The notes under the pieces are model-generated. The model did not search any database. It saw only the letters and a program-made list of their open reading frames with translations, and was not told the DNA's origin. The position numbers and the translations under genes are program-made. A DNA stretch of 64,000 bases, taken from an uncultured Verrucomicrobiae bacterium. Lineage in GTDB: Bacteria; Verrucomicrobiota; Verrucomicrobiia; Limisphaerales; Palsa-1400. Of this stretch, positions 11,220 through 20,892 are shown piece after piece (the first letter of the stretch is position 1; each line of letters opens with the position of its first letter). Location: the NCBI GenBank assembly GCA_963764165.1, contig CAVXRD010000002.1, positions 544,001 to 608,000 of the forward strand, read 5' to 3'.

Positions 11220-11620
11220 GACCCCTTTGACGTCGACGGCGCCACTCGCACCTTGCCAAGCGTGTCAAGGCGCTGGGCAATAAAGCCCGCAAAGGGTTCA
11301 ACGATATGGCCGAAGATCGAAGATCGACATTCGGCGGGCGCCGCGGATTCGACACCCCCGGGCGTTTTGGGACGCTTTGGCGCCGCATCTGTCGCGCATC
11401 GAGATGGACGACACGCAATGGAGTTTTCGGCGGGACGCCGAAGACGGCGGTCGGGACGACCGCGCTCCCCTAATCTGTCTCACGCCCCACCCCAGACGGT
11501 TTGGCCGCTTTTATCTTGATGCGCGGCCCATGGCGGGCTACCCTGCTCAGCTATTAACCGTGGCAGATCTCATGCGACCCGTTCATCCGTGTTTCTGCCG
11601 GTTTGCCGCGCCAAATCATC

Positions 11621-14600
11621 ATGAGAGCCTTTCTGTTTCGGAAGACCCCCGCCGCCTTTTTCGCTTCTTTGTTTTGGGCTTTTGCCATGGCCACGGTGAA
11701 TGAACAAGCCGAGCCTGTTCTCGGCCCTGCCCCGTCGATGGCGCTTCCAGCCGCCGCGCCTGCCATGGCGAAGCCCGGCGCAACCACCCCTCGCAAGGAT
11801 GACGCCAATGGAAATGTGGTGTTCACGGTCAACGGTAATTCGCGCGAAGAGGTTAGGGAATTCTACAACGGGGTTTATCTGGCATCCGAAAATGTGCCGA
11901 TGGAGTCCACGGCAAATGACGCCAACTGCTTTCCCGGCACAAATTCCGCGGCTTTTCAAGATTCAATTCAATGGCGAATCAACTGGTTCCGCGCCTTGGC
12001 GGGAATCCCGGCGGACATCACGTTTTCCGATTCGGAAGCAACCAACTGCCAGTCCGCGGCGCTGATGCTATCTGTCAATAATATGCTGGCGCACTCAGGC
12101 GTGCCTTTAACCTGGTCTTGCTTTGCGACGAATGGAACGAACGCCCTGTCTGCATCCAATATCGCGCTTGGCCTCAATGGACCGGATGCCATCACTGGAT
12201 ACGTGTGGGATTACGGGATGGAGAATTACTTCGTCGGGCATCGGAGGTTTATTTTGTATCCGCAAACGCAGGTCATGGCCACTGGCGATGTTCCGGCTCA
12301 GGACGGCCACTTGCCCGCCAACGACACGTTCGTCATTGATTCCAATTACGGCGGGCCTCGGCCTGCCACCACGCATCCCTTCGTCGCCTGGCCACCGCCC
12401 GGCTACGTCCCCTATCAGGTCGTCTTTCCCCAATGGTCGTTCGCCATGGGGACGCCTGCGGATATCGCCCTGGCGGAGATCACGATGCTCAGCAACGGAG
12501 TGCCGATGGCTGTCCAGACACAGCGGTTTTCCGGCGATGACGGCGAGGACACGATCGTCTGGTATCCAGCGGGCTTGGATTATACGAGCTACAATGCGCG
12601 CTTCCCGTTCGATGGAAATGATACGGTTTACACAATTTCGATCTCCAACATTATCGAGCAGTCGGGCACGGTTTCTGTCACTTATTGCGTTACCAATTTT
12701 GATCCCGCCGTGCCGGGGCCGGACTATGTCCCGCCTGCGGTGACGGGCCCGGCTGTTGTCGCCACGAACCTGTCAAACAATTACTCCGTCACGCCGTCCG
12801 CCAATCCAAACACGACGGGTTATCAATGGCTGGTTGCTTCCCTGGTCAGCGGCAATCTCACGGACAATGCCACCAGCGGATTGAAGAATTTTACCATGTC
12901 GCCGGCGCCGTTGGCCTCCGTGATCTCGAATGCGCCGGTTGGCTCGGGAAAATGCTTTCATTTGACCCATCATGCGGACACCGCGCAACTGCTTGAATTC
13001 AACGAGACTGTTTTTCCGGCCACGAATACGACCCTGAAATTCCAGAGCTATCTGGGACTGTCAACCGCCAGCGAAGTCGCGCGCGTGCAGGTCTCGACCG
13101 ACGCGGGAAAAACGTGGACCGACATTTTCACGCAGGCCGGCCCGTCGGGCCAGTCTTCTTTCTCTTCCAAGACGTTGTCGCTGGCAAAGTACGCGGGCGA
13201 AATGACGCAAGTGCGCTTCAATTACGATTATATTGGCAGCGGCTCGTATTACTCGCAGACCGCGCCCGGCTTCGGATGGTCTATTCAAAATATCGCGCTG
13301 GCGAATGCCGGCCAATTGGTTGACAGCACGACGAACTATGCCACCTCCCCGCAGTTCACCTTCGTGCCGACCCAGCCGGGCAGTTGGGCGCTCTTGGCTC
13401 GGCCGGTGATTTTTGGGCTGTTTGGCCTCAATTGGTCGGCGGCCTTGGCGGTTGAAACCCCGCCTGCCATCACGTCACAGCCGGCCAATGTCACGGTGGC
13501 CGAGGGCGGAACGGCAACTTTTCGCGTCGGACTAACCGGACCCGGCACGTTTTCCTATCAATGGCAATTCAACGGAACGAACATCCCCGCCGCCACAAAT
13601 TCCGCTTGCGCGGTGAAAAATGCGCAGTTGTTCCAAGCCGGTTCTTACGATGTCGTCGTTGCCACCGGCATCGGCGGAGCGAGTGTCACAAGCTCCATCG
13701 CCACGCTGACGGTGACGCCAACTCTCGGAAAACTCCACATCACGGGGCAGCCACAAAGCATTTCCGCGCCCATTGGAGGCGAAGCTTTCTTTAGCGTCTC
13801 GGCGATCGGAGAATCCGCCCTCAGCTATCGATGGGCCAAAAACGGGGCGAGCCTTTCTGAAGAGGGCGAATTCAGCGGCACGACAAATCCCGTCCTTGCC
13901 ATGACTGGAGTTCAGCCAAGCGACGCTGGCAGTTATAGTGTCGTTATCTCAGATGATCGCGGAACAGTGAAAAGCGCGGCGGCCGTTTTAACCGTCGAGG
14001 CGGCAATTTCTGTCGTCGTTTCGGGCAACGGCACGGTCTCCCCAAATTACGGCGGCAAAACGCTGCCAGTCGGAAAGACCTACACGATGACAGCCAAGGC
14101 CGGCCCCGGCGCCATCTTCGCCGGCTGGGGAGGCGCGGTCATCACAAACTCGGCCGCCGCTAAATTCATCGTGGAAAGCAACATGAGTTTCACCGCCACG
14201 TTTGTGACGAATCCGTTCATCCCGCTTCAAGGATCGTATTATGGGCTCTTTTGGCCGGACGGTTCGCCGCGCAATCAGACCAACTCCGGCGCGGTCACTT
14301 TGACCGTGAGCAGCCAGGGAGCGCTTTCTGGAAAATTGACCATTGGAACAAACACACCATCGCTGACCGGCCAGTTTTCTCTCGACGGTTTGGCAACCAT
14401 CGTCACGCCACGCAAGGGATCATCCACTCTGACGACGACGCTCCAGTTGAATGCGGCTGAGCAGACAATTTCCGGCGCGATCACCGACGGTTCGTTTACT
14501 TCGAGCCTTCTTGCCAACCAGCAAGTCTTCAGCACAAAACATTCGGCCATTAATTACGCGGGAAAATACACACTGGTCATTCCCGGCCAGCCGATTTCAG

Positions 14601-15238
14601 CGGACGGCCCGTTCGGGGCAAGTTTCGGAACCGCGACGGTCGCCACCAGCGGCGCGATCACTTTCAGCGGCACGCTTGCGGACGGAACCGCCGTAAGCCA
14701 ATCGAGCTACGTTTCGGAGGATGGCTATTGGCCATTATACATTCCCCTTTACAGCGGCAACGGCTCGCTCCTGAGTTGGAATTATTTCGGTCCCAGCCGC
14801 GCCGCCATTGCCGCGGCGAATGCCTTCGGGCTTTCCGCGGACGCAAGCTGGATCTGCCTCACCAACAAGATCAAAACCTCCCTCTACCGCGCGGGCTTCA
14901 CCAACGATCCAACCCCGGTATACGCCTCAACCTACGCAAGCTCGAACACGGTGAATTTGACGAACGGCCAAGTCACCTTGTTGCTGGAAAACGGATTCAC
15001 CGACACCATCCCGGTCAACATCAGCAAAGGCAAAGTCACTCTCGCGGGGGCCAACACAAACAAATTATCGTTGACGATCAGCCCCAGCACAGGCGCCATC
15101 AGCGGCACCTTCACCAATGGCTCCAAGACGCCGATAAAAATCAGCGGAATGCTCCTGCAAAGCGGCACCAACGCCGCCGGCTATTTCAGCGTCTCGAACA
15201 CGCCGGGCCTTTTTCTGCTGAGGCCGCCGTCAGAGTAA
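11621..15238 (+). CDS. Large secreted protein: CAP/SCP-like domain, Ig-like domains, divergent InlB-B-type repeat
   Basis: Signal peptide; WRINWFRALAG...AALMLS...HS...GHRRFILYP (CAP-like); PAITSQP..YQWQFNG..GSYDVVV Ig repeats. Confidence 0.75.
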   Translation: MRAFLFRKTPAAFFASLFWAFAMATVNEQAEPVLGPAPSMALPAAAPAMAKPGATTPRKDDANGNVVFTVNGNSREEVREFYNGVYLASENVPMESTANDANCFPGTNSAAFQDSIQWRINWFRALAGIPADITFSDSEATNCQSAALMLSVNNMLAHSGVPLTWSCFATNGTNALSASNIALGLNGPDAITGYVWDYGMENYFVGHRRFILYPQTQVMATGDVPAQDGHLPANDTFVIDSNYGGPRPATTHPFVAWPPPGYVPYQVVFPQWSFAMGTPADIALAEITMLSNGVPMAVQTQRFSGDDGEDTIVWYPAGLDYTSYNARFPFDGNDTVYTISISNIIEQSGTVSVTYCVTNFDPAVPGPDYVPPAVTGPAVVATNLSNNYSVTPSANPNTTGYQWLVASLVSGNLTDNATSGLKNFTMSPAPLASVISNAPVGSGKCFHLTHHADTAQLLEFNETVFPATNTTLKFQSYLGLSTASEVARVQVSTDAGKTWTDIFTQAGPSGQSSFSSKTLSLAKYAGEMTQVRFNYDYIGSGSYYSQTAPGFGWSIQNIALANAGQLVDSTTNYATSPQFTFVPTQPGSWALLARPVIFGLFGLNWSAALAVETPPAITSQPANVTVAEGGTATFRVGLTGPGTFSYQWQFNGTNIPAATNSACAVKNAQLFQAGSYDVVVATGIGGASVTSSIATLTVTPTLGKLHITGQPQSISAPIGGEAFFSVSAIGESALSYRWAKNGASLSEEGEFSGTTNPVLAMTGVQPSDAGSYSVVISDDRGTVKSAAAVLTVEAAISVVVSGNGTVSPNYGGKTLPVGKTYTMTAKAGPGAIFAGWGGAVITNSAAAKFIVESNMSFTATFVTNPFIPLQGSYYGLFWPDGSPRNQTNSGAVTLTVSSQGALSGKLTIGTNTPSLTGQFSLDGLATIVTPRKGSSTLTTTLQLNAAEQTISGAITDGSFTSSLLANQQVFSTKHSAINYAGKYTLVIPGQPISADGPFGASFGTATVATSGAITFSGTLADGTAVSQSSYVSEDGYWPLYIPLYSGNGSLLSWNYFGPSRAAIAAANAFGLSADASWICLTNKIKTSLYRAGFTNDPTPVYASTYASSNTVNLTNGQVTLLLENGFTDTIPVNISKGKVTLAGANTNKLSLTISPSTGAISGTFTNGSKTPIKISGMLLQSGTNAAGYFSVSNTPGLFLLRPPSE

Positions 15239-15250
15239 TGGCTCGCCAGT

Positions 15251-15700
15251 CTAACTGGGGGCAGCGAGTCGGTTTCGCGCTCGCTTAATCGTTGCGTTAT
15301 ATCTGGAGAGAATAACAGTCTGCGCAATCCGCACGGGGTTCTTAAGCGAGTGCTCCCATATTCGGATAACGCGCCAGCCGCGTTTCCGGAGAATTTTGCC
15401 CACCGCCACATCGCGCGCTTTATTCCTGCGAATTTTTGGAAGCCAATACTCCTTTCGGCTCCCAGGCATCCGGCCATGCCAGCGGCAGCCGTGCCAGAAA
15501 CAGCCATCCACGAAGACCGCCATGCGCTCTTTCGGGAATACAAAATCGGGCCGTCCGGGAACACGCTGATTCCGGCGCCATCCCGTAATGCCGCTGGCTC
15601 TGAAAATGGCGGCCAGCTTCACTTCCGTGCTTTTGTTGTTGGTCGACCTAATGGCCGCCATCACGCGCGACCGCTTCTCCACTGTGAACACATCTGGCAC
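15251..15700 (-). CDS. vsr: Very-short-patch repair endonuclease
   Basis: DVFTVEKRSRVMAAIRS, PGRPDFVF, FVDGCFWHGC, GWRVIRIWEH; GTG start at 15700. Confidence 0.9.
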   Translation of the reverse strand: MPDVFTVEKRSRVMAAIRSTNNKSTEVKLAAIFRASGITGWRRNQRVPGRPDFVFPKERMAVFVDGCFWHGCRWHGRMPGSRKEYWLPKIRRNKARDVAVGKILRKRGWRVIRIWEHSLKNPVRIAQTVILSRYNATIKRARNRLAAPS

Positions 15701-16073
15701 GGAAAGATGTTTACACCACCTCCCGGCCGCATAAAACCGGAAAGAACCCCAATTATTGGCAAGGGCACAAATCAGATTTTGCAAACTGATTTTCGCCCCT
15801 CCATGCCGTCGGCTCAGATTTTGTTTGCTTGGATTTGATTCGCTCCTGCGACAAATGCTCCTCAACAAAGGACTCCCCGGAAGGTGGTTAATCAACTTTC
15901 AAACCAGGCCAGACAGCGCTGGCACACCGTGGCATCGGCTCGGCGCAGCGAGCCGGCCCGGCCAAAAGCTGCTGTCCGCCCTGTTGGCGAATTTGGGCGG
16001 GGCAGGCTCATGTTTTTGAGCCATGCCCCACTAAATCGTGCAAAAATGCATTTTTTTGTGAAAAAAGCGGCCA

Positions 16074-16119
16074 AAAAACCTCTGGTAGGTTTTCTGTTTG
16101 CCTCCGCGCCTGCCAAAGT
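16074..16119 (+). promoter_or_regulatory. Dyad AAAACCT-N5-AGGTTTT plus TG-extended -10-like element upstream of the phage-like operon
   Basis: AAAAACCTCTGGTAGGTTTTCTG-N14-TGCCAAAGT; second copy at 29617-29662. Confidence 0.65.
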
Positions 16120-16196
16120 CGTGGCGCATGAGACGACTTAACAGTGTGTCCGGCGCCAAAACGCCCGACTTAGCCAGCCAATAAAATCACCATTCT

Positions 16197-16403
16197 ATGA
16201 AGAAAAAATTCGCGTCTATCCTCGCTGCGGCGGCGTTCGCCACCGCGGGCTGCAAAAATCCACTCGCCATTTCGGGCGACTACGCCACGCCAAAACAAAC
16301 GATCAGCGGCGGCGTCACAACAACCACCAACAGCGTCATTGTGACGGGTGGATACTCAACAACCAATCAAACCATCGGCGGTTCCGTCACCGTTGGAAAA
16401 TAG
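16197..16403 (+). CDS. Small lipoprotein
   Basis: MKKKFASILAAAAFATAGC lipobox-like; Thr/Gly-rich beta strands. Confidence 0.75.
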   Translation: MKKKFASILAAAAFATAGCKNPLAISGDYATPKQTISGGVTTTTNSVIVTGGYSTTNQTIGGSVTVGK

Positions 16404-16412
16404 GAAAACGAT

Positions 16413-16778
16413 ATGCGAAAACTATTATTCCAAGCCTTGTTGCCAAGTTCCTTGTTTCTCCAGGCTTGCGCTTGTCCGCACCGCAAGGCGGTTTCGTCGC
16501 ATGAGGTCGAGACCTACGCCGGGCGCGTGGACGGATTGGTCCGCCGCGAAACCTGGCGCGATTCCGAACAGGGGGGCGGGCAATTCGTCTTCACCGATCC
16601 ATCGGCGGCGCAACTGTTCGCCTCGCACACCAACCAATCGGCCCTCGGCGGCGGCTCCGTCTTCAGCGCGGGCGCGGTCGCCGTCGCGGTCGACACCAAC
16701 ACGCCGGCCATCATCGGCGCAGCGGGAACGGCAGTCGGAAATGTCATCGGCGCGGCGGCCAAGACCTCTGTCAAATAG
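16413..16778 (+). CDS. Probable lipoprotein with hydrophobic Gly/Ala C-terminal helix
   Basis: MRKLLFQALLPSSLFLQACAC; C-terminal IIGAAGTAVGNVIGAAAK. Confidence 0.7.
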   Translation: MRKLLFQALLPSSLFLQACACPHRKAVSSHEVETYAGRVDGLVRRETWRDSEQGGGQFVFTDPSAAQLFASHTNQSALGGGSVFSAGAVAVAVDTNTPAIIGAAGTAVGNVIGAAAKTSVK

Positions 16779-16782
16779 ATCC

Positions 16783-17592
16783 ATGAATACCCCATCCCCC
16801 AATCAATTCGATCCCCACAACGCCCGCGCGCTGTGTCTCGCCAGCGCTGAGGCTTATAATGCTGACGCGACTCCTCCCGAATCTTCCCTGCGATGCGAGG
16901 CCGCGGACACTCATGTTTGCATCCAGCGCCGCACCTCTTTCTCCGAGAGCGACGGCGGCGAAATGACCATCGCGTTTCGCGGCACCGCCGATTGGCGCAA
17001 CGCCCTGACCGATATGGATTGCAAGCTCATCCACGCCGGCGGCTATCGCGTCCACCGCGGTTTCCACCAGGCCGTCGAAGCCATCGACGCCAGCCTCACG
17101 GCTGCGCTGGGCGACGTTTCGGGCATGCGCCTGTGGGTCACCGGGCATTCCCTCGGCGGCGCGCTGGCGGAATTGTGGGCGCTGCGCGCGCTCGAGCGCG
17201 GCCATGACATAGCTGGAGTTTACACCTTCGGCCAGCCGCGCGTGGGCGATGCCGCGTTCGCCGCCTATTACGATTCACTGCTCAAGCCGCGCACATTCCG
17301 CGTCGTTCACGGCGACGATGTCGTCCCGCGAATTCCGTGGCTCCTCGCCAAGTATCGCCATGCCGGGAACGAAATCTTTTACCCCCGCGCCTCTTCGGCG
17401 GCATGGATCGCAAATTGTTCGTGGTGGCGGAAATTAATGTTTGACGTTGCGGCGGTCACCGGGGACTTGCGGGCAGGCCGCATCGGAGCATTGGACAGCC
17501 ATCACATCAGCAACTATCTCGCGCTCTTTTTCGAAACAGCGCCGTCCCGAACCTCAAACCGCTCCAACTCAAATTCCCATGATATTCTCTGA
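16783..17592 (+). CDS. Lipase class 3 family protein
   Basis: IAFRGT, VHRGF, VTGHSLGGALA nucleophile elbow, YTFGQPRVGD, DVVPRIP, C-terminal HHISNY; ATG at 16783. Confidence 0.9.
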   Translation: MNTPSPNQFDPHNARALCLASAEAYNADATPPESSLRCEAADTHVCIQRRTSFSESDGGEMTIAFRGTADWRNALTDMDCKLIHAGGYRVHRGFHQAVEAIDASLTAALGDVSGMRLWVTGHSLGGALAELWALRALERGHDIAGVYTFGQPRVGDAAFAAYYDSLLKPRTFRVVHGDDVVPRIPWLLAKYRHAGNEIFYPRASSAAWIANCSWWRKLMFDVAAVTGDLRAGRIGALDSHHISNYLALFFETAPSRTSNRSNSNSHDIL

Positions 17593-18004
17593 CATCTCCA
17601 ACGCTGAACTCGGCGCGTGGGTTTACGCCCTCGCGACCGTCATCCAAATCGTGAGCACCATCGCGATTCTCATCACCATTAATTCCAAGCAAAAACGGGA
17701 AATCAGTTTTGCGGGGGAAACAGTGGAGCGGAAGGAATTCGACAAGCATGTGGCCGAGAATTCCCTCGTTCACCAGCAGCTCTTTGCCAAAATCGGCGGC
17801 GTCGAGCGTGGGCTGGAATCGCGCCTCGCTTCCCGCATGGACAAATTCGAAACCGAAAGCGAGGACTCCCGCCGTTTGTTTCATCGCGACATCAGCGCCA
17901 TCGGCAACGACGTCGCCGCCCTCAAGAAGGAAGCCGAATTGGCCAACCAGCGTTCGCTCCAGATGGACGCGAAGATCGACCGCCTCATTGAACGCCCGAA
18001 ATAG
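17579..18004 (+). CDS. N-terminal TM + coiled-coil protein (Mu gp25-like / lysis-cassette type)
   Basis: One TM (AWVYALATVIQIVSTIAILITI) then heptad-rich helix ending MDAKIDRLIER; position before gp26/gp27/terminase. Confidence 0.6.
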   Translation: MIFSDISNAELGAWVYALATVIQIVSTIAILITINSKQKREISFAGETVERKEFDKHVAENSLVHQQLFAKIGGVERGLESRLASRMDKFETESEDSRRLFHRDISAIGNDVAALKKEAELANQRSLQMDAKIDRLIERPK

Positions 18005-18016
18005 AAGAATCCCACC

Positions 18017-18289
18017 ATGATACCCACCGACAAAATCGAACTCTTCGACAACGCCCTGCTGAAAATTCTCGAGGCCAACAATACGCCTTGGGGTTTGCAA
18101 TCGGCGGCCTTGTGCATGTTTGCCCGCGAATTTGGTTTCGCGCCCTCCGCGCCGGAAGCCGTCCCGCGCCTTGAGTATTTGACAGCCAAAGGAATGGCGC
18201 AGGAAGTTTCCAAGCAATTGAGCAAGGCCAATCGCGCCTGGAAAATCACGGACGCCGGACGCCGCTACCTCGACGAACAAGGACTCTGA
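18017..18289 (+). CDS. Small winged-helix protein (Mu gp26-like)
   Basis: RLEYLTAKGM...WKITDAGRRYL wHTH tail; synteny with the terminase genes. Confidence 0.6.
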   Translation: MIPTDKIELFDNALLKILEANNTPWGLQSAALCMFAREFGFAPSAPEAVPRLEYLTAKGMAQEVSKQLSKANRAWKITDAGRRYLDEQGL

Positions 18290-18294
18290 ACCAT

Positions 18295-18771
18295 ATGAGA
18301 ACCAACGACGAACTATCAGCCCTCAACGCCCTGCCCGCGCCGCAGCAACAGGAAATTCTCGAATTTCTGGAGGGTGGCGAGAATAAACCGGGGCGCTCCG
18401 CCGGCGAATGCGCCGAATGGCTTGCGGAGCGCGGCATCGCTGCAAACGTCGAAGCCATCCAGCGTTGGCAAACGCGGCAACTGCATCGCATTCGCATGGA
18501 ATGGTGCGAATCGATGACCGCCATCGCAATTGAAGACGCCCGCCGCCCGAACCACGTTTATTCAGACGAGGAGCTGCTGAGCATCGGCATCCGCCTTTTC
18601 AACGCGCTCGTCGTAAAAACGTGCCGGCACGAAAACCTCACACGAAATCAAACCGCGGAAATCCGGCGGCAAGCAATGATCCGCCTCGAGCACGAACTCG
18701 TCACGGAACTGGAGAAGTTCGCCGCAGCCAATTCTCATTCATCCCCTCCCTCCCATCCCTCGCATCTATGA
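18295..18771 (+). CDS. Mu gp27/DUF3486-like putative small terminase
   Basis: SALNALPAPQQQEILEFL...ECAEWLAERGI...AIQRW HTH pattern; ATGA-coupled to the terminase gene. Confidence 0.65.
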   Translation: MRTNDELSALNALPAPQQQEILEFLEGGENKPGRSAGECAEWLAERGIAANVEAIQRWQTRQLHRIRMEWCESMTAIAIEDARRPNHVYSDEELLSIGIRLFNALVVKTCRHENLTRNQTAEIRRQAMIRLEHELVTELEKFAAANSHSSPPSHPSHL

Positions 18772-20279
18772 ACGATTCACCACCGCCACCCGCCCCCAAT
18801 ATTCTGGATCGCACTTTTGCCGCCCCCGGAGCGGAGCTTCTGCCTTACCAAAAAGACTGGGCCAATGACTCATCGCGATGGAAATTTGGCCTGATGTCCC
18901 GCCAAGTCGGAAAGGACTTTGCCGCGGGCTTCGAAGGCGTCCGCGATTGCGTGGAGGCCGAGCTGGCCGGAAGAAAAGTGACATGGCTGATCGCCGCGCC
19001 CTCGGAACGGCAATCGCTCGAATCGTTGAACAAATGGAAAAATTGGGCCGAATCCTTTCACCTCGCGCTGGAAGGCGAAGAAATCGAACGTGCCGATGGC
19101 TCAGAGAGCCTGCTCTCGTCCGCCAGCATCACGTTTCCCAACGGCAGCCGCGTCATCGCCGTCCCCGGCCAGCCGGACACCGTGCGGGGATTCAGCGCCA
19201 ACATATTATTGACAGAATTCGCTTTCTTCGAGCGGCCTGAAGCCACCTGGCGGGCCATCCTTCCGAGCATCACCAATTCCAAAAGTGGCGGCGTCAAGAA
19301 AGTCCGCCTCATCACCACTCCCAACGGACTCGGCAACAAGGCGCATGACCTGTGGATCAAAAATTATCGCCCGCCCGGAAATTCTGCAACGGAATCGCGC
19401 GGTCAAACTGCTGCGCCGCCGGGCGCGAGTTCCCTTCTCCCATCGCCGATGTGGAAGTGCCATTTTGTTGACATACACAAGGCCGTCGCGCAGGGATTGC
19501 GGGCGGATATTGAGGAATTGAGGGCGGCGCTGGACGACCCGGAAGGCTGGTCGCAGGAATTTGAGTGCCAGTTCCTCGACGTCCAATCCGTCCTGCTCCC
19601 CTACGAACTCATCGCGACTTGCGAAAGCGCGGAAGCCACCGTCACCGCGCCGTTGGACTTCTGGCAAGCCGCCGCCGGGAGCCCGCTCGCGATGGGAATT
19701 GATTTCGGCCGCCGGCGGGACTTGACCGTCGCGTGGACACTCGCGCGCGTGGGCGACGTCTGGCAGACAATTGAAGTCCTGGTGCTCGACCAAACTCCCA
19801 CCGATCAGCAGGTGGAGATTTTGCGCCCGCGCATCCGCCGTTGCGGGCGCGTTTGCGTGGATTACACCGGGCCGGGCGTGGGTTTTGGCGATTACCTGGT
19901 GAAGGAATTCCACGAATTCAACCCGGCCCAGCACACGTTCGGCAAAATCGAGCCATGCACCTTTTCGCAAAACCTGAAAGTCGACATCTTCAGCAAATTG
20001 CGCATGGCCTTCGAGCATCGGGAATTGCGCGTGCCCGTCAACCGGGACATCCGCGAAGATTTGCATTCCCTCAGCCGCGTGAGCAATCCCAACGGCCAAA
20101 TCACCTACCGCGCCTCGCACACCGCCGACGGCCACGCCGACCGCGCCACCGCGCTGGCCCTGGCCCTTCGCGCGACAGGCGGCGGCGTCGGACAATCCGC
20201 TGCCGAATCCATCCCCCGCCCTCCCAATCCGCGAGATCTGGCCATGGCATCGGGCAATCGCAGCCGGTGGACATTATGA
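18768..20279 (+). CDS. Phage terminase large subunit (Mu gp28-like)
   Basis: LLPYQ, SRQVGKD, TVRGFSANILLTEFAF, ITTPNG, QEFECQF, GIDFGRRRD, VDYTGPG, GHADRATALAL. Confidence 0.9.
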   Translation: MNDSPPPPAPNILDRTFAAPGAELLPYQKDWANDSSRWKFGLMSRQVGKDFAAGFEGVRDCVEAELAGRKVTWLIAAPSERQSLESLNKWKNWAESFHLALEGEEIERADGSESLLSSASITFPNGSRVIAVPGQPDTVRGFSANILLTEFAFFERPEATWRAILPSITNSKSGGVKKVRLITTPNGLGNKAHDLWIKNYRPPGNSATESRGQTAAPPGASSLLPSPMWKCHFVDIHKAVAQGLRADIEELRAALDDPEGWSQEFECQFLDVQSVLLPYELIATCESAEATVTAPLDFWQAAAGSPLAMGIDFGRRRDLTVAWTLARVGDVWQTIEVLVLDQTPTDQQVEILRPRIRRCGRVCVDYTGPGVGFGDYLVKEFHEFNPAQHTFGKIEPCTFSQNLKVDIFSKLRMAFEHRELRVPVNRDIREDLHSLSRVSNPNGQITYRASHTADGHADRATALALALRATGGGVGQSAAESIPRPPNPRDLAMASGNRSRWTL

Positions 20280-20284
20280 ATGCC

Positions 20285-20629
20285 TCATCTGTTTTTGACG
20301 CCCCGTTTTCGGGCTGTCGCCGAGGCTTTGCGGCCAAGAATTGCCCCAACGTCTCGCGCGCCGTGCAAAACCCGGACAATCTCGACAGGGCGGCGCTTGC
20401 GCCTGTAAATAATCAAGTAACGCCTTACAAGCCAGAACTGCAGAGGTTCGTCCGCCAGGTCACCCCGCGAATGGCCAATCCCGGGCGTCGTGGCCAACTT
20501 GTTAAAAGCCTCGAAGATATCATCCCGCACGCGGTCAGCGGCATCAGGATTCTGCAATTCGATGGCATAATAATCCCAGATCTCGTCCAAATCGCCGCTT
20601 GCGGCGGGCGAAATAAGGAAGTCACTCAT
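20285..20629 (-). CDS. ParE/RelE-family toxin
   Basis: ISPAASGDLDEIWDY, PGIGHSR, YLIIYR, VEIVRVLHGARD. Confidence 0.9.
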   Translation of the reverse strand: MSDFLISPAASGDLDEIWDYYAIELQNPDAADRVRDDIFEAFNKLATTPGIGHSRGDLADEPLQFWLVRRYLIIYRRKRRPVEIVRVLHGARDVGAILGRKASATARKRGVKNR

Positions 20630-20892
20630 CGCTTGCGCGCGCGAAATTGGGCGCTCCGTTTCTTCATGCGCGCGTAAACCTGCTCACCACTGATGCCCTC
20701 ACCACGATCTAGTTCATTGAGGCCGGCCCGGATCTTTTTTCGCGCTTCATCCAAGTGCAGGGCTCGCAGATGATCTTGGTCCTCCAAGAGCCGCAGCCCT
20801 TCACGGATGACTTCGCTGGCAGATTGGTAGAGGCCGCTTTGCACCTTCCGGTTTACAAGCTGCTCCAATTCGGGAGTTAACGAAACATTCAT
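20626..20892 (-). CDS. ParD-family ribbon-helix-helix antitoxin
   Basis: MNVSLTPELEQLV...SGLYQSASEVIREGLRLL; 4-bp overlap with the toxin gene. Confidence 0.9.
   Translation of the reverse strand: MNVSLTPELEQLVNRKVQSGLYQSASEVIREGLRLLEDQDHLRALHLDEARKKIRAGLNELDRGEGISGEQVYARMKKRSAQFRARKR

Follow-up and report, generated by a model that had tools for sequence, protein, structure and literature searches.

A class-3 lipase as a putative accessory membrane-lipid hydrolase in a Mu-like lysis cassette of Limisphaerales with no recognised endolysin

Tailed phages of walled bacteria are normally expected to carry an endolysin, and in phage Mu the spanin genes lie downstream of it. LysB, known from the mycobacteriophages Ms6 and D29, is a cutinase-like enzyme that accompanies an endolysin and acts on the mycolate envelope of mycobacteria. 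Pairs of a lipase and a lipoprotein are also known as effector and immunity proteins from type VI secretion, and gene transfer agents such as RcGTA are spread over several loci, lack a transposase, are kept across genera and share an upstream motif. According to PMC9239132, Mu carries the SAR endolysin gp22 and spanins, its DUF2730 protein gp25 is a releasin, and 33 of 34 phages have an endolysin at most five genes upstream of DUF2730. The DUF1353 family has phospholipase A2 activity and adjoins a muramidase, and no secretion phenotype was found for ttaP, the DUF1353 gene beside the muramidase TtsA (PMC11525133). In open-access text, a lipase was found to be described once for a lysis cassette of Gram-negative hosts (PMC12173070, in which the LysB of Ms6 is cited), and no description of such a cassette that lacks an endolysin was found.

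In this study, a lipase-bearing cassette was analysed in a 64,000-nucleotide stretch of DNA from an uncultured Verrucomicrobiae bacterium, referred to as the window. The cassette and the element in front of it comprise the following features.

16045-16130, + strand: promoter-like module with a 19-bp palindrome (16075-16093), found as a sequence pattern; promoter function is putative
16197-16403, + strand: lipoprotein 1, 68 aa, rich in Thr, Val and Gly, lipobox TAGC, no family match
16413-16778, + strand: lipoprotein 2, 121 aa, lipobox LQAC, u-spanin-like outline
16783-17592, + strand: class-3 lipase, 269 aa (Pfam Lipase_3, triad, AlphaFold model)
17149-17151, 17317-17319 and 17500-17502, + strand: codons of the lipase triad Ser123, Asp179 and His240
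17579-18004, + strand: TM/coiled-coil gene, 141 aa, N-terminal TM segment, resembles the DUF2730/Mu gp25 releasin family
18017-18289, + strand: Mu gp26-like winged-helix protein, 90 aa (hhalign 97.7%)
18295-18771, + strand: 158-aa gene in the position of Mu gp27 (small terminase), placed by position and synteny alone
18768-20279, + strand: Mu-type terminase large subunit, 503 aa, last gene of the cassette

The lipase had been noted in a preliminary description as flanked by two lipoproteins and a TM/coiled-coil gene and overlapping the latter; this arrangement stands, the two reading frames sharing 14 bases. Pfam and PHROG searches with the 158-aa gene gave no match. Neither a portal nor a capsid gene was found in the region read around the cassette, the portal gene lying on another contig and not after the terminase. 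The cassette is flanked by a Vsr endonuclease gene (15251-15670) and a ParDE pair (20285-20892), in which 6 bases separate the end of the toxin gene from the stop of the terminase, and further upstream by a gene for a 1211-aa protein with Ig and MAM-like domains (11603-15238). In the clade of the window terminase (18768-20279) the usual Walker B DE is replaced by TE, a type common to prophage and host-kept terminases (L022-L025, L039, L073). Several orphan terminase genes occur per genome, most with a gp27-sized partner (G007, G006 and others; L031, L033-L036, L026-L028, L051, L052).

The lipase matches Pfam Lipase_3 (PF01764) with 105 bits against a cut-off of 22 (E 3.6e-30). Ser123 in GHSLG, Asp179 in DDVVP and His240 in HHISNY are invariant among 37 aligned relatives, and in a pattern check all three motifs were present in 39 of the 47 lipases of its clade. 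In a Foldseek search, the AlphaFold model (pLDDT 83) aligned with fungal class-3 lipases and with a feruloyl esterase (E 3.9e-13). A strongly hydrophobic N-terminus is absent from all 47 lipases of the clade. No peptidoglycan hydrolase domain was found in the window lipase by Pfam, PHROG or fold searches, and no carbohydrate-binding or virion-attachment domain in Pfam or in the predicted structure. Thus, alignment, fold and N-terminus agree with the complete-looking Ser/Asp/His triad and the lack of a signal peptide that had been noted before. Judged from sequence and model, the protein is a member of the class-3 lipase family with the fungal-lipase fold, and ester hydrolysis is its predicted activity. 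It resembles LysB in being a serine alpha/beta hydrolase without signal peptide, encoded in a lysis cassette and apparently aimed at a lipid layer, but it is of the fungal class-3 type, its host, whose best named relative is a Limisphaerales genome, has no mycolate envelope, and no endolysin was found in its clade. With no partner endolysin recognised and the wall pathway of the host interrupted, it would be more than an ordinary LysB analogue.

In a quick tree of 95 sequences the window lipase falls into the 47-member clade with an SH-aLRT support of 98, and the members come from Mu-like phages and prophages of Limisphaerales. Thirty-four of the 47 are followed within 4.5 kb by a terminase matched by profile, and 12 more precede the same run of TM, gp26, gp27 and large gene, judged by size and look; one lacks this gene order. 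The lipase homologues of the clade are therefore regularly found beside gp26, gp27 and terminase (46/47). Homologous cassettes that normally carry an endolysin and only sporadically the lipase would have spoken against the preliminary description; in those of the clade no known endolysin was found, and the lipase is a regular component. In the family of the host (f1), 13 of the 15 readable cassettes contain the lipase, one of the 13 in broken form. It has been cleanly lost from an otherwise intact cassette in G001, where lipoprotein 2 is kept, and is broken in G019; from this loss and breakage, the lipase appears to be dispensable to the cassette. It also evolves faster than its neighbours, with 43% identity where the TM gene, gp26 and the terminase reach 70-84%. 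Compared with G004, the lipase has a dN of 0.57 and a dS of 1.33, the latter near saturation. In every gene of the cassette dN is lower than dS, and among the lysis genes this is least pronounced in the lipase, again with dS near saturation. Single-protein scans of viral contigs for relatives gave no match, and annotated phages yielded three weak matches alone, to cyanophage or unannotated proteins. A scan of the genome collection returned mostly distant lipases, with four of 80 loci read. Among more distant viral lipases, endolysin-type neighbours (GH108, GH73, M23, M15) are present in few loci.

The downstream genes tie the cassette to Mu. The TM gene matches DUF2730 in hhalign with 93% probability (E 2.8e-7), a comparison in which TM-coiled-coil profiles can match by composition, and gave no direct Pfam DUF2730 match. 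As in Mu, the DUF2730-like TM gene is followed by gp26- and gp27-like genes and the terminase. In viral loci selected by their terminase, a known endolysin is present in the matching region in 28 of 54, counted from labels carried over from cluster representatives and for plus-strand genes. The DUF2730-like and gp26-like genes, together with the endolysins of these related loci, identify the window cassette as a lysis region, and the earlier designation as a phage-like lysis cassette is upheld by these two genes and the Mu-type terminase. The difference to Mu lies in the remaining content: neither an endolysin within five genes upstream of the TM gene nor a two-component spanin was recognised in the window cassette, which instead has the lipoproteins and the lipase.

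On the other hand, the proposal that the lipase occupies the endolysin slot did not hold. In four viral loci (L186, L192, L226, L201) the order is GH108 endolysin, lipoprotein, class-3 lipase and a gene in the DUF2730/gp25 position, so that the hydrolase is downstream of the endolysin where both occur and the lipase takes the spanin position of Mu. Moreover, many relatives without endolysin also lack the lipase, which argues that it did not swap in for an endolysin. The lipases of the four loci fall outside the 47-member clade, and the pairing is therefore likely to have arisen more than once. The position is shared with other enzymes. In L294 an M15-type endolysin is followed by DUF1353 in the place of the lipase, in L236 and L241 DUF1353 is immediately 3' of lipoprotein 2, in L286 a lipoprotein with a PLD domain occupies the cassette region, and a second alpha/beta-hydrolase family is found in the lysis region of four loci, inverted in one. 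TtaP offers a parallel as a cell-associated lipid hydrolase adjoining phage-derived envelope genes (PMC11525133), and its family, DUF1353, fills the position of the lipase in related phages; its fold is unrelated to that of class-3 lipases. The convergence of unrelated lipid hydrolases on one position points to a membrane-lipid substrate and is the main argument for the reading given below. Other proteins were seen in comparable places. A more distant Mu-like phage encodes an unclassified 189-aa soluble protein in the endolysin position (L271:7805-8374), a candidate for an unrecognised wall hydrolase that has no relatives among the loci examined. A fold search with the 170-aa slot protein of L040 gave no match. 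A Caspase-family (Peptidase_C14) protein is in the lysis position of G121 (L336:6906-7652), and a similar-looking one adjoins a lipoprotein among tail genes in G118 (L412:9981-10790).

The search for an endolysin was extended from the window to the whole phage group. No Pfam or PHROG endolysin family was detected among the seven cassette genes, in agreement with the absence of amidase, muramidase and peptidase motifs noted before. The complete prophage on contig C4 of the same genome likewise gave no endolysin, with 49 proteins compared against Pfam and 37 against PHROGs. A set of 33 endolysin-type queries, which recovered 4/4 controls, had no match in 53 clade loci (887 kb) or in 26 other Limisphaerales loci (314 kb), and three additional queries likewise gave no match. 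In 36 whole viral records, five of them at least 90% complete, GH108 was found in three, all of which are the controls, and Amidase_2 in none, the set holding no positive record for Amidase_2. Eight whole records and another four prophages gave 213 new cluster representatives, of which 149 were scanned, the rest being short or scanned before; no endolysin was recognised in the 149 proteins, and a sub-threshold NlpC/P60 match appeared among tail-tip genes alone. Most proteins of these phages match no family, so an unrecognised wall hydrolase can hide among them, and the result is to be read as none recognised, not as none. A complete 42.5-kb phage with terminal repeats and a lambda-type terminase (G342, L399-L401; L241:9959-11076) carries lipoprotein 2 and DUF1353, and no endolysin was recognised in it.

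The preliminary description had seen the lipoproteins as spanin-like or as immunity factors. Lipoprotein 1 has a 57% identical copy in the C4 prophage. Lipoprotein 2 combines a lipobox, whose Cys19 is invariant among aligned homologues, with four beta strands predicted by a low-confidence model (pLDDT 60) and a C-terminal Gly/Ala helix (G105-x3-G109-x3-G113). This outline resembles u-spanins of the T1 gp11 type, with an N-terminal lipid anchor, a beta-rich middle and a C-terminal helix (PMC7830690). The likeness ends at the helix, which is rich in Gly and Ala and of weak hydrophobicity, the best 19-residue stretch scoring 0.5-1.6 among 25 homologues, and no sequence or fold match was found; a fold search and an Atlas look-up gave no named match. 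Lipoprotein 2 is thus predicted to be an outer-membrane, u-spanin-like protein. It is found with the lipase, with DUF1353 and without any hydrolase, which speaks against a role in immunity, and the lipase occurs with several unrelated lipoproteins. The spanin-like part of the earlier suggestion therefore fits lipoprotein 2 in outline, and the immunity part is weak, there being no strict pairing.

The module in front of the cassette links it to distant loci. The palindromic module lies 104 bases before lipoprotein 1. Its pattern matches 36 times in the genome (the window and 35 further sites) and not at all in shuffled sequence, and the module is described by its palindrome and an ATG about 32 bases behind it. 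One copy is 145 bases upstream of the portal gene that heads a separate head-tail block on contig C1 (L427, G000:C1:1257311-1271835; related loci L428, L418-L426), a Mu-type portal being the first gene of this block. A similar sequence precedes the cassette in G001, G004 and G006. Two copies precede orphan gp27-like genes (C1:1236191, C2:1192459), and most stand before ordinary host genes at a distance of 200-900 bases. A third block comprises repressor and Gam genes. The window cassette makes up the part with the lysis genes and the terminase in a Mu-derived phage that is split over three loci. Orthologous head-tail blocks that start at the portal were found in nine more genomes, with capsids 83-92% identical, and the split element is conserved in four genera, the capsid gene being present in 11 of their 12 genomes and in none of the other 29 searched. 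Endolysin searches of these blocks gave no match, and with four queries a transposase was detected nowhere but in the C4 prophage. In this genome, the structural block that matches the cassette has its tail-fibre gene divided into two pieces. The C4 prophage itself (G000:C4:317700-351900; L042, L021, L041) is complete, transposable and equipped with its own lipase cassette, whose proteins are 29-58% identical to those of the window. The window element is comparable to RcGTA in that it is multi-locus, has no transposase in its blocks, is kept across genera and shares an upstream motif. As expected of a gene transfer agent, its structural genes are kept across a host clade without replication genes. 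It differs from RcGTA in being Mu-derived and in having a release module without a holin-endolysin pair, and packaging and transfer of DNA would be putative functions.

The wall genes of the host were also inspected in its 97% complete genome. The division cluster (L061, G000:C2:2146000-2165999) reads ftsI-murF-mraY-ftsW-murG-murB-ddl-ftsQAZ, with murE, murD and murC absent from their usual places, and mpl lies elsewhere (L062:6635-8032). There are three Mur-ligase matches genome-wide, namely MurF, Mpl and a weak third that is probably FolC, and no transglycosylase domain or class A PBP was found in the genome. Still present are murB, murF, mpl, mraY, murG and ddl, together with both SEDS/PBP pairs and an amidase, and the host therefore probably still makes some wall; a host devoid of any wall was ruled out, most of the pathway being present. 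The loss of murC, murD and murE with murF and mpl retained suggests tripeptide salvage or a non-standard stem peptide. Among 55 terminase-bearing genomes, murE was found in 17 and not in 38, distributed by whole families. As a marker, murD (likewise patterned by family, found in 178 of the 301 genomes of the order and not in 123) is misleading, since G126 and G109 keep it and lack murE.

A hand-made table relates murE to the occupation of the slot in 48 readable cassettes. G301 is left unassigned, its division cluster not being assembled, those of G051, G008 and G294 are partly assembled, and a further 41 terminase loci, which lie at contig ends or have no cassette, were excluded. Of the 35 murE-less loci 21 have a slot hydrolase, of the 12 murE-bearing loci none, and kin are not independent in this count. 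Counted by family, the ratio is 6/8 to 0/6 with a Fisher p of 0.01, which becomes 0.14 if two doubtful rows are assigned the opposite way. The link is no more than suggestive, and murE loss may be one event. The murE-bearing loci are, judged by eye, mostly remnants with holin-like and Rz/Rz1-like genes. Loci without slot hydrolase (14/35 murE-less, 12/12 murE-bearing) are likewise without a recognised endolysin, and the absence of the endolysin is thus linked neither to the lipase nor to the loss of murE.

Taken at a probability of roughly 55%, the lipase is an accessory membrane-lipid hydrolase in an endolysin-less lysis cassette of Limisphaerales Mu-like phages. These phages and the tamed, host-kept copy likely break out mainly by attacking membranes. 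The lipase, predicted to hydrolyse envelope phospholipids, would be made late and in the cytoplasm and would aid lipoprotein 2 and the gp25-like inner-membrane protein in opening the cell, as an accessory and not as the sole lysin. It may attack the inner membrane from inside, or the outer membrane once the inner one has been made permeable by the gp25-like protein. No dedicated hydrolase would then be needed for a wall that is thin or has few cross-links, and the window copy would help to release the particles that the split, host-kept element makes. A more far-reaching version is tentative, with the odds against it: that a phage group and its GTA-like derivative lyse Gram-negative hosts free of any endolysin, by a phospholipase together with a u-spanin-like lipoprotein and a protein of the releasin family, and that they can do so because loss of MurC/MurE and class A PBPs has left the hosts with a minimal, salvage-fed wall.

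It is unlikely that the lipase is instead a functional substitute for the endolysin, an esterase whose target, as with LysB, would be an ester link, either of an unusual wall or of a wall-to-membrane tether in hosts unable to build a standard stem peptide. All resolved hosts with a slot hydrolase do lack murE, and the closest solved folds include a feruloyl esterase, but the same enzyme class adjoins ordinary GH108 endolysins and is exchangeable with the phospholipase A2 family DUF1353, and the family-level p of 0.01 to 0.14 may reflect a single loss of murE. To our knowledge, no ester link of this kind has been described in a wall or wall-membrane tether. Somewhat lower still stands the view that the membrane proteins do the lysis and the released lipase removes membrane debris, LPS acyl chains or surface polymers, which would free particles or make the next infection easier. 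A dispensable, fast-evolving enzyme without export signal would suit this, and a Pseudomonas phage lipase encoded upstream of holin and endolysin acts on the cell surface (PMC12173070, citing PghP). Such a helper is harder to reconcile with the lack of a carbohydrate-binding or virion-attachment domain, with the tight translational coupling between lipoprotein and TM gene, and with the retention of the lipase in a host-owned element.

Phage-carried cargo in the form of a Tle-type antibacterial lipase with a lipoprotein as immunity factor is very improbable. The lipase without signal peptide does adjoin lipoproteins, but the cassettes read contain no secretion or delivery gene, the lipase has a fixed position in the late operon, and partners are not strictly paired, lipoprotein 2 being found without lipase (G001) or with DUF1353 and the lipase with unrelated lipoproteins. 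Least probable of all is that the window lipase is a decaying piece of an old prophage without current role. The loss in G001, the breakage in G019 and the divided tail-fibre gene would be expected of such a leftover; the intact triad, dN below dS (with dS near saturation), the upstream module shared with the structural block and the capsid identity across four genera all argue against it.

An endolysin-less clade that swaps lipid hydrolases into its cassette would add a membrane-first route to lysis. It would also give the DUF2730 family a case without an endolysin to release, and it would point to overlooked wall biology in abundant soil Verrucomicrobia.
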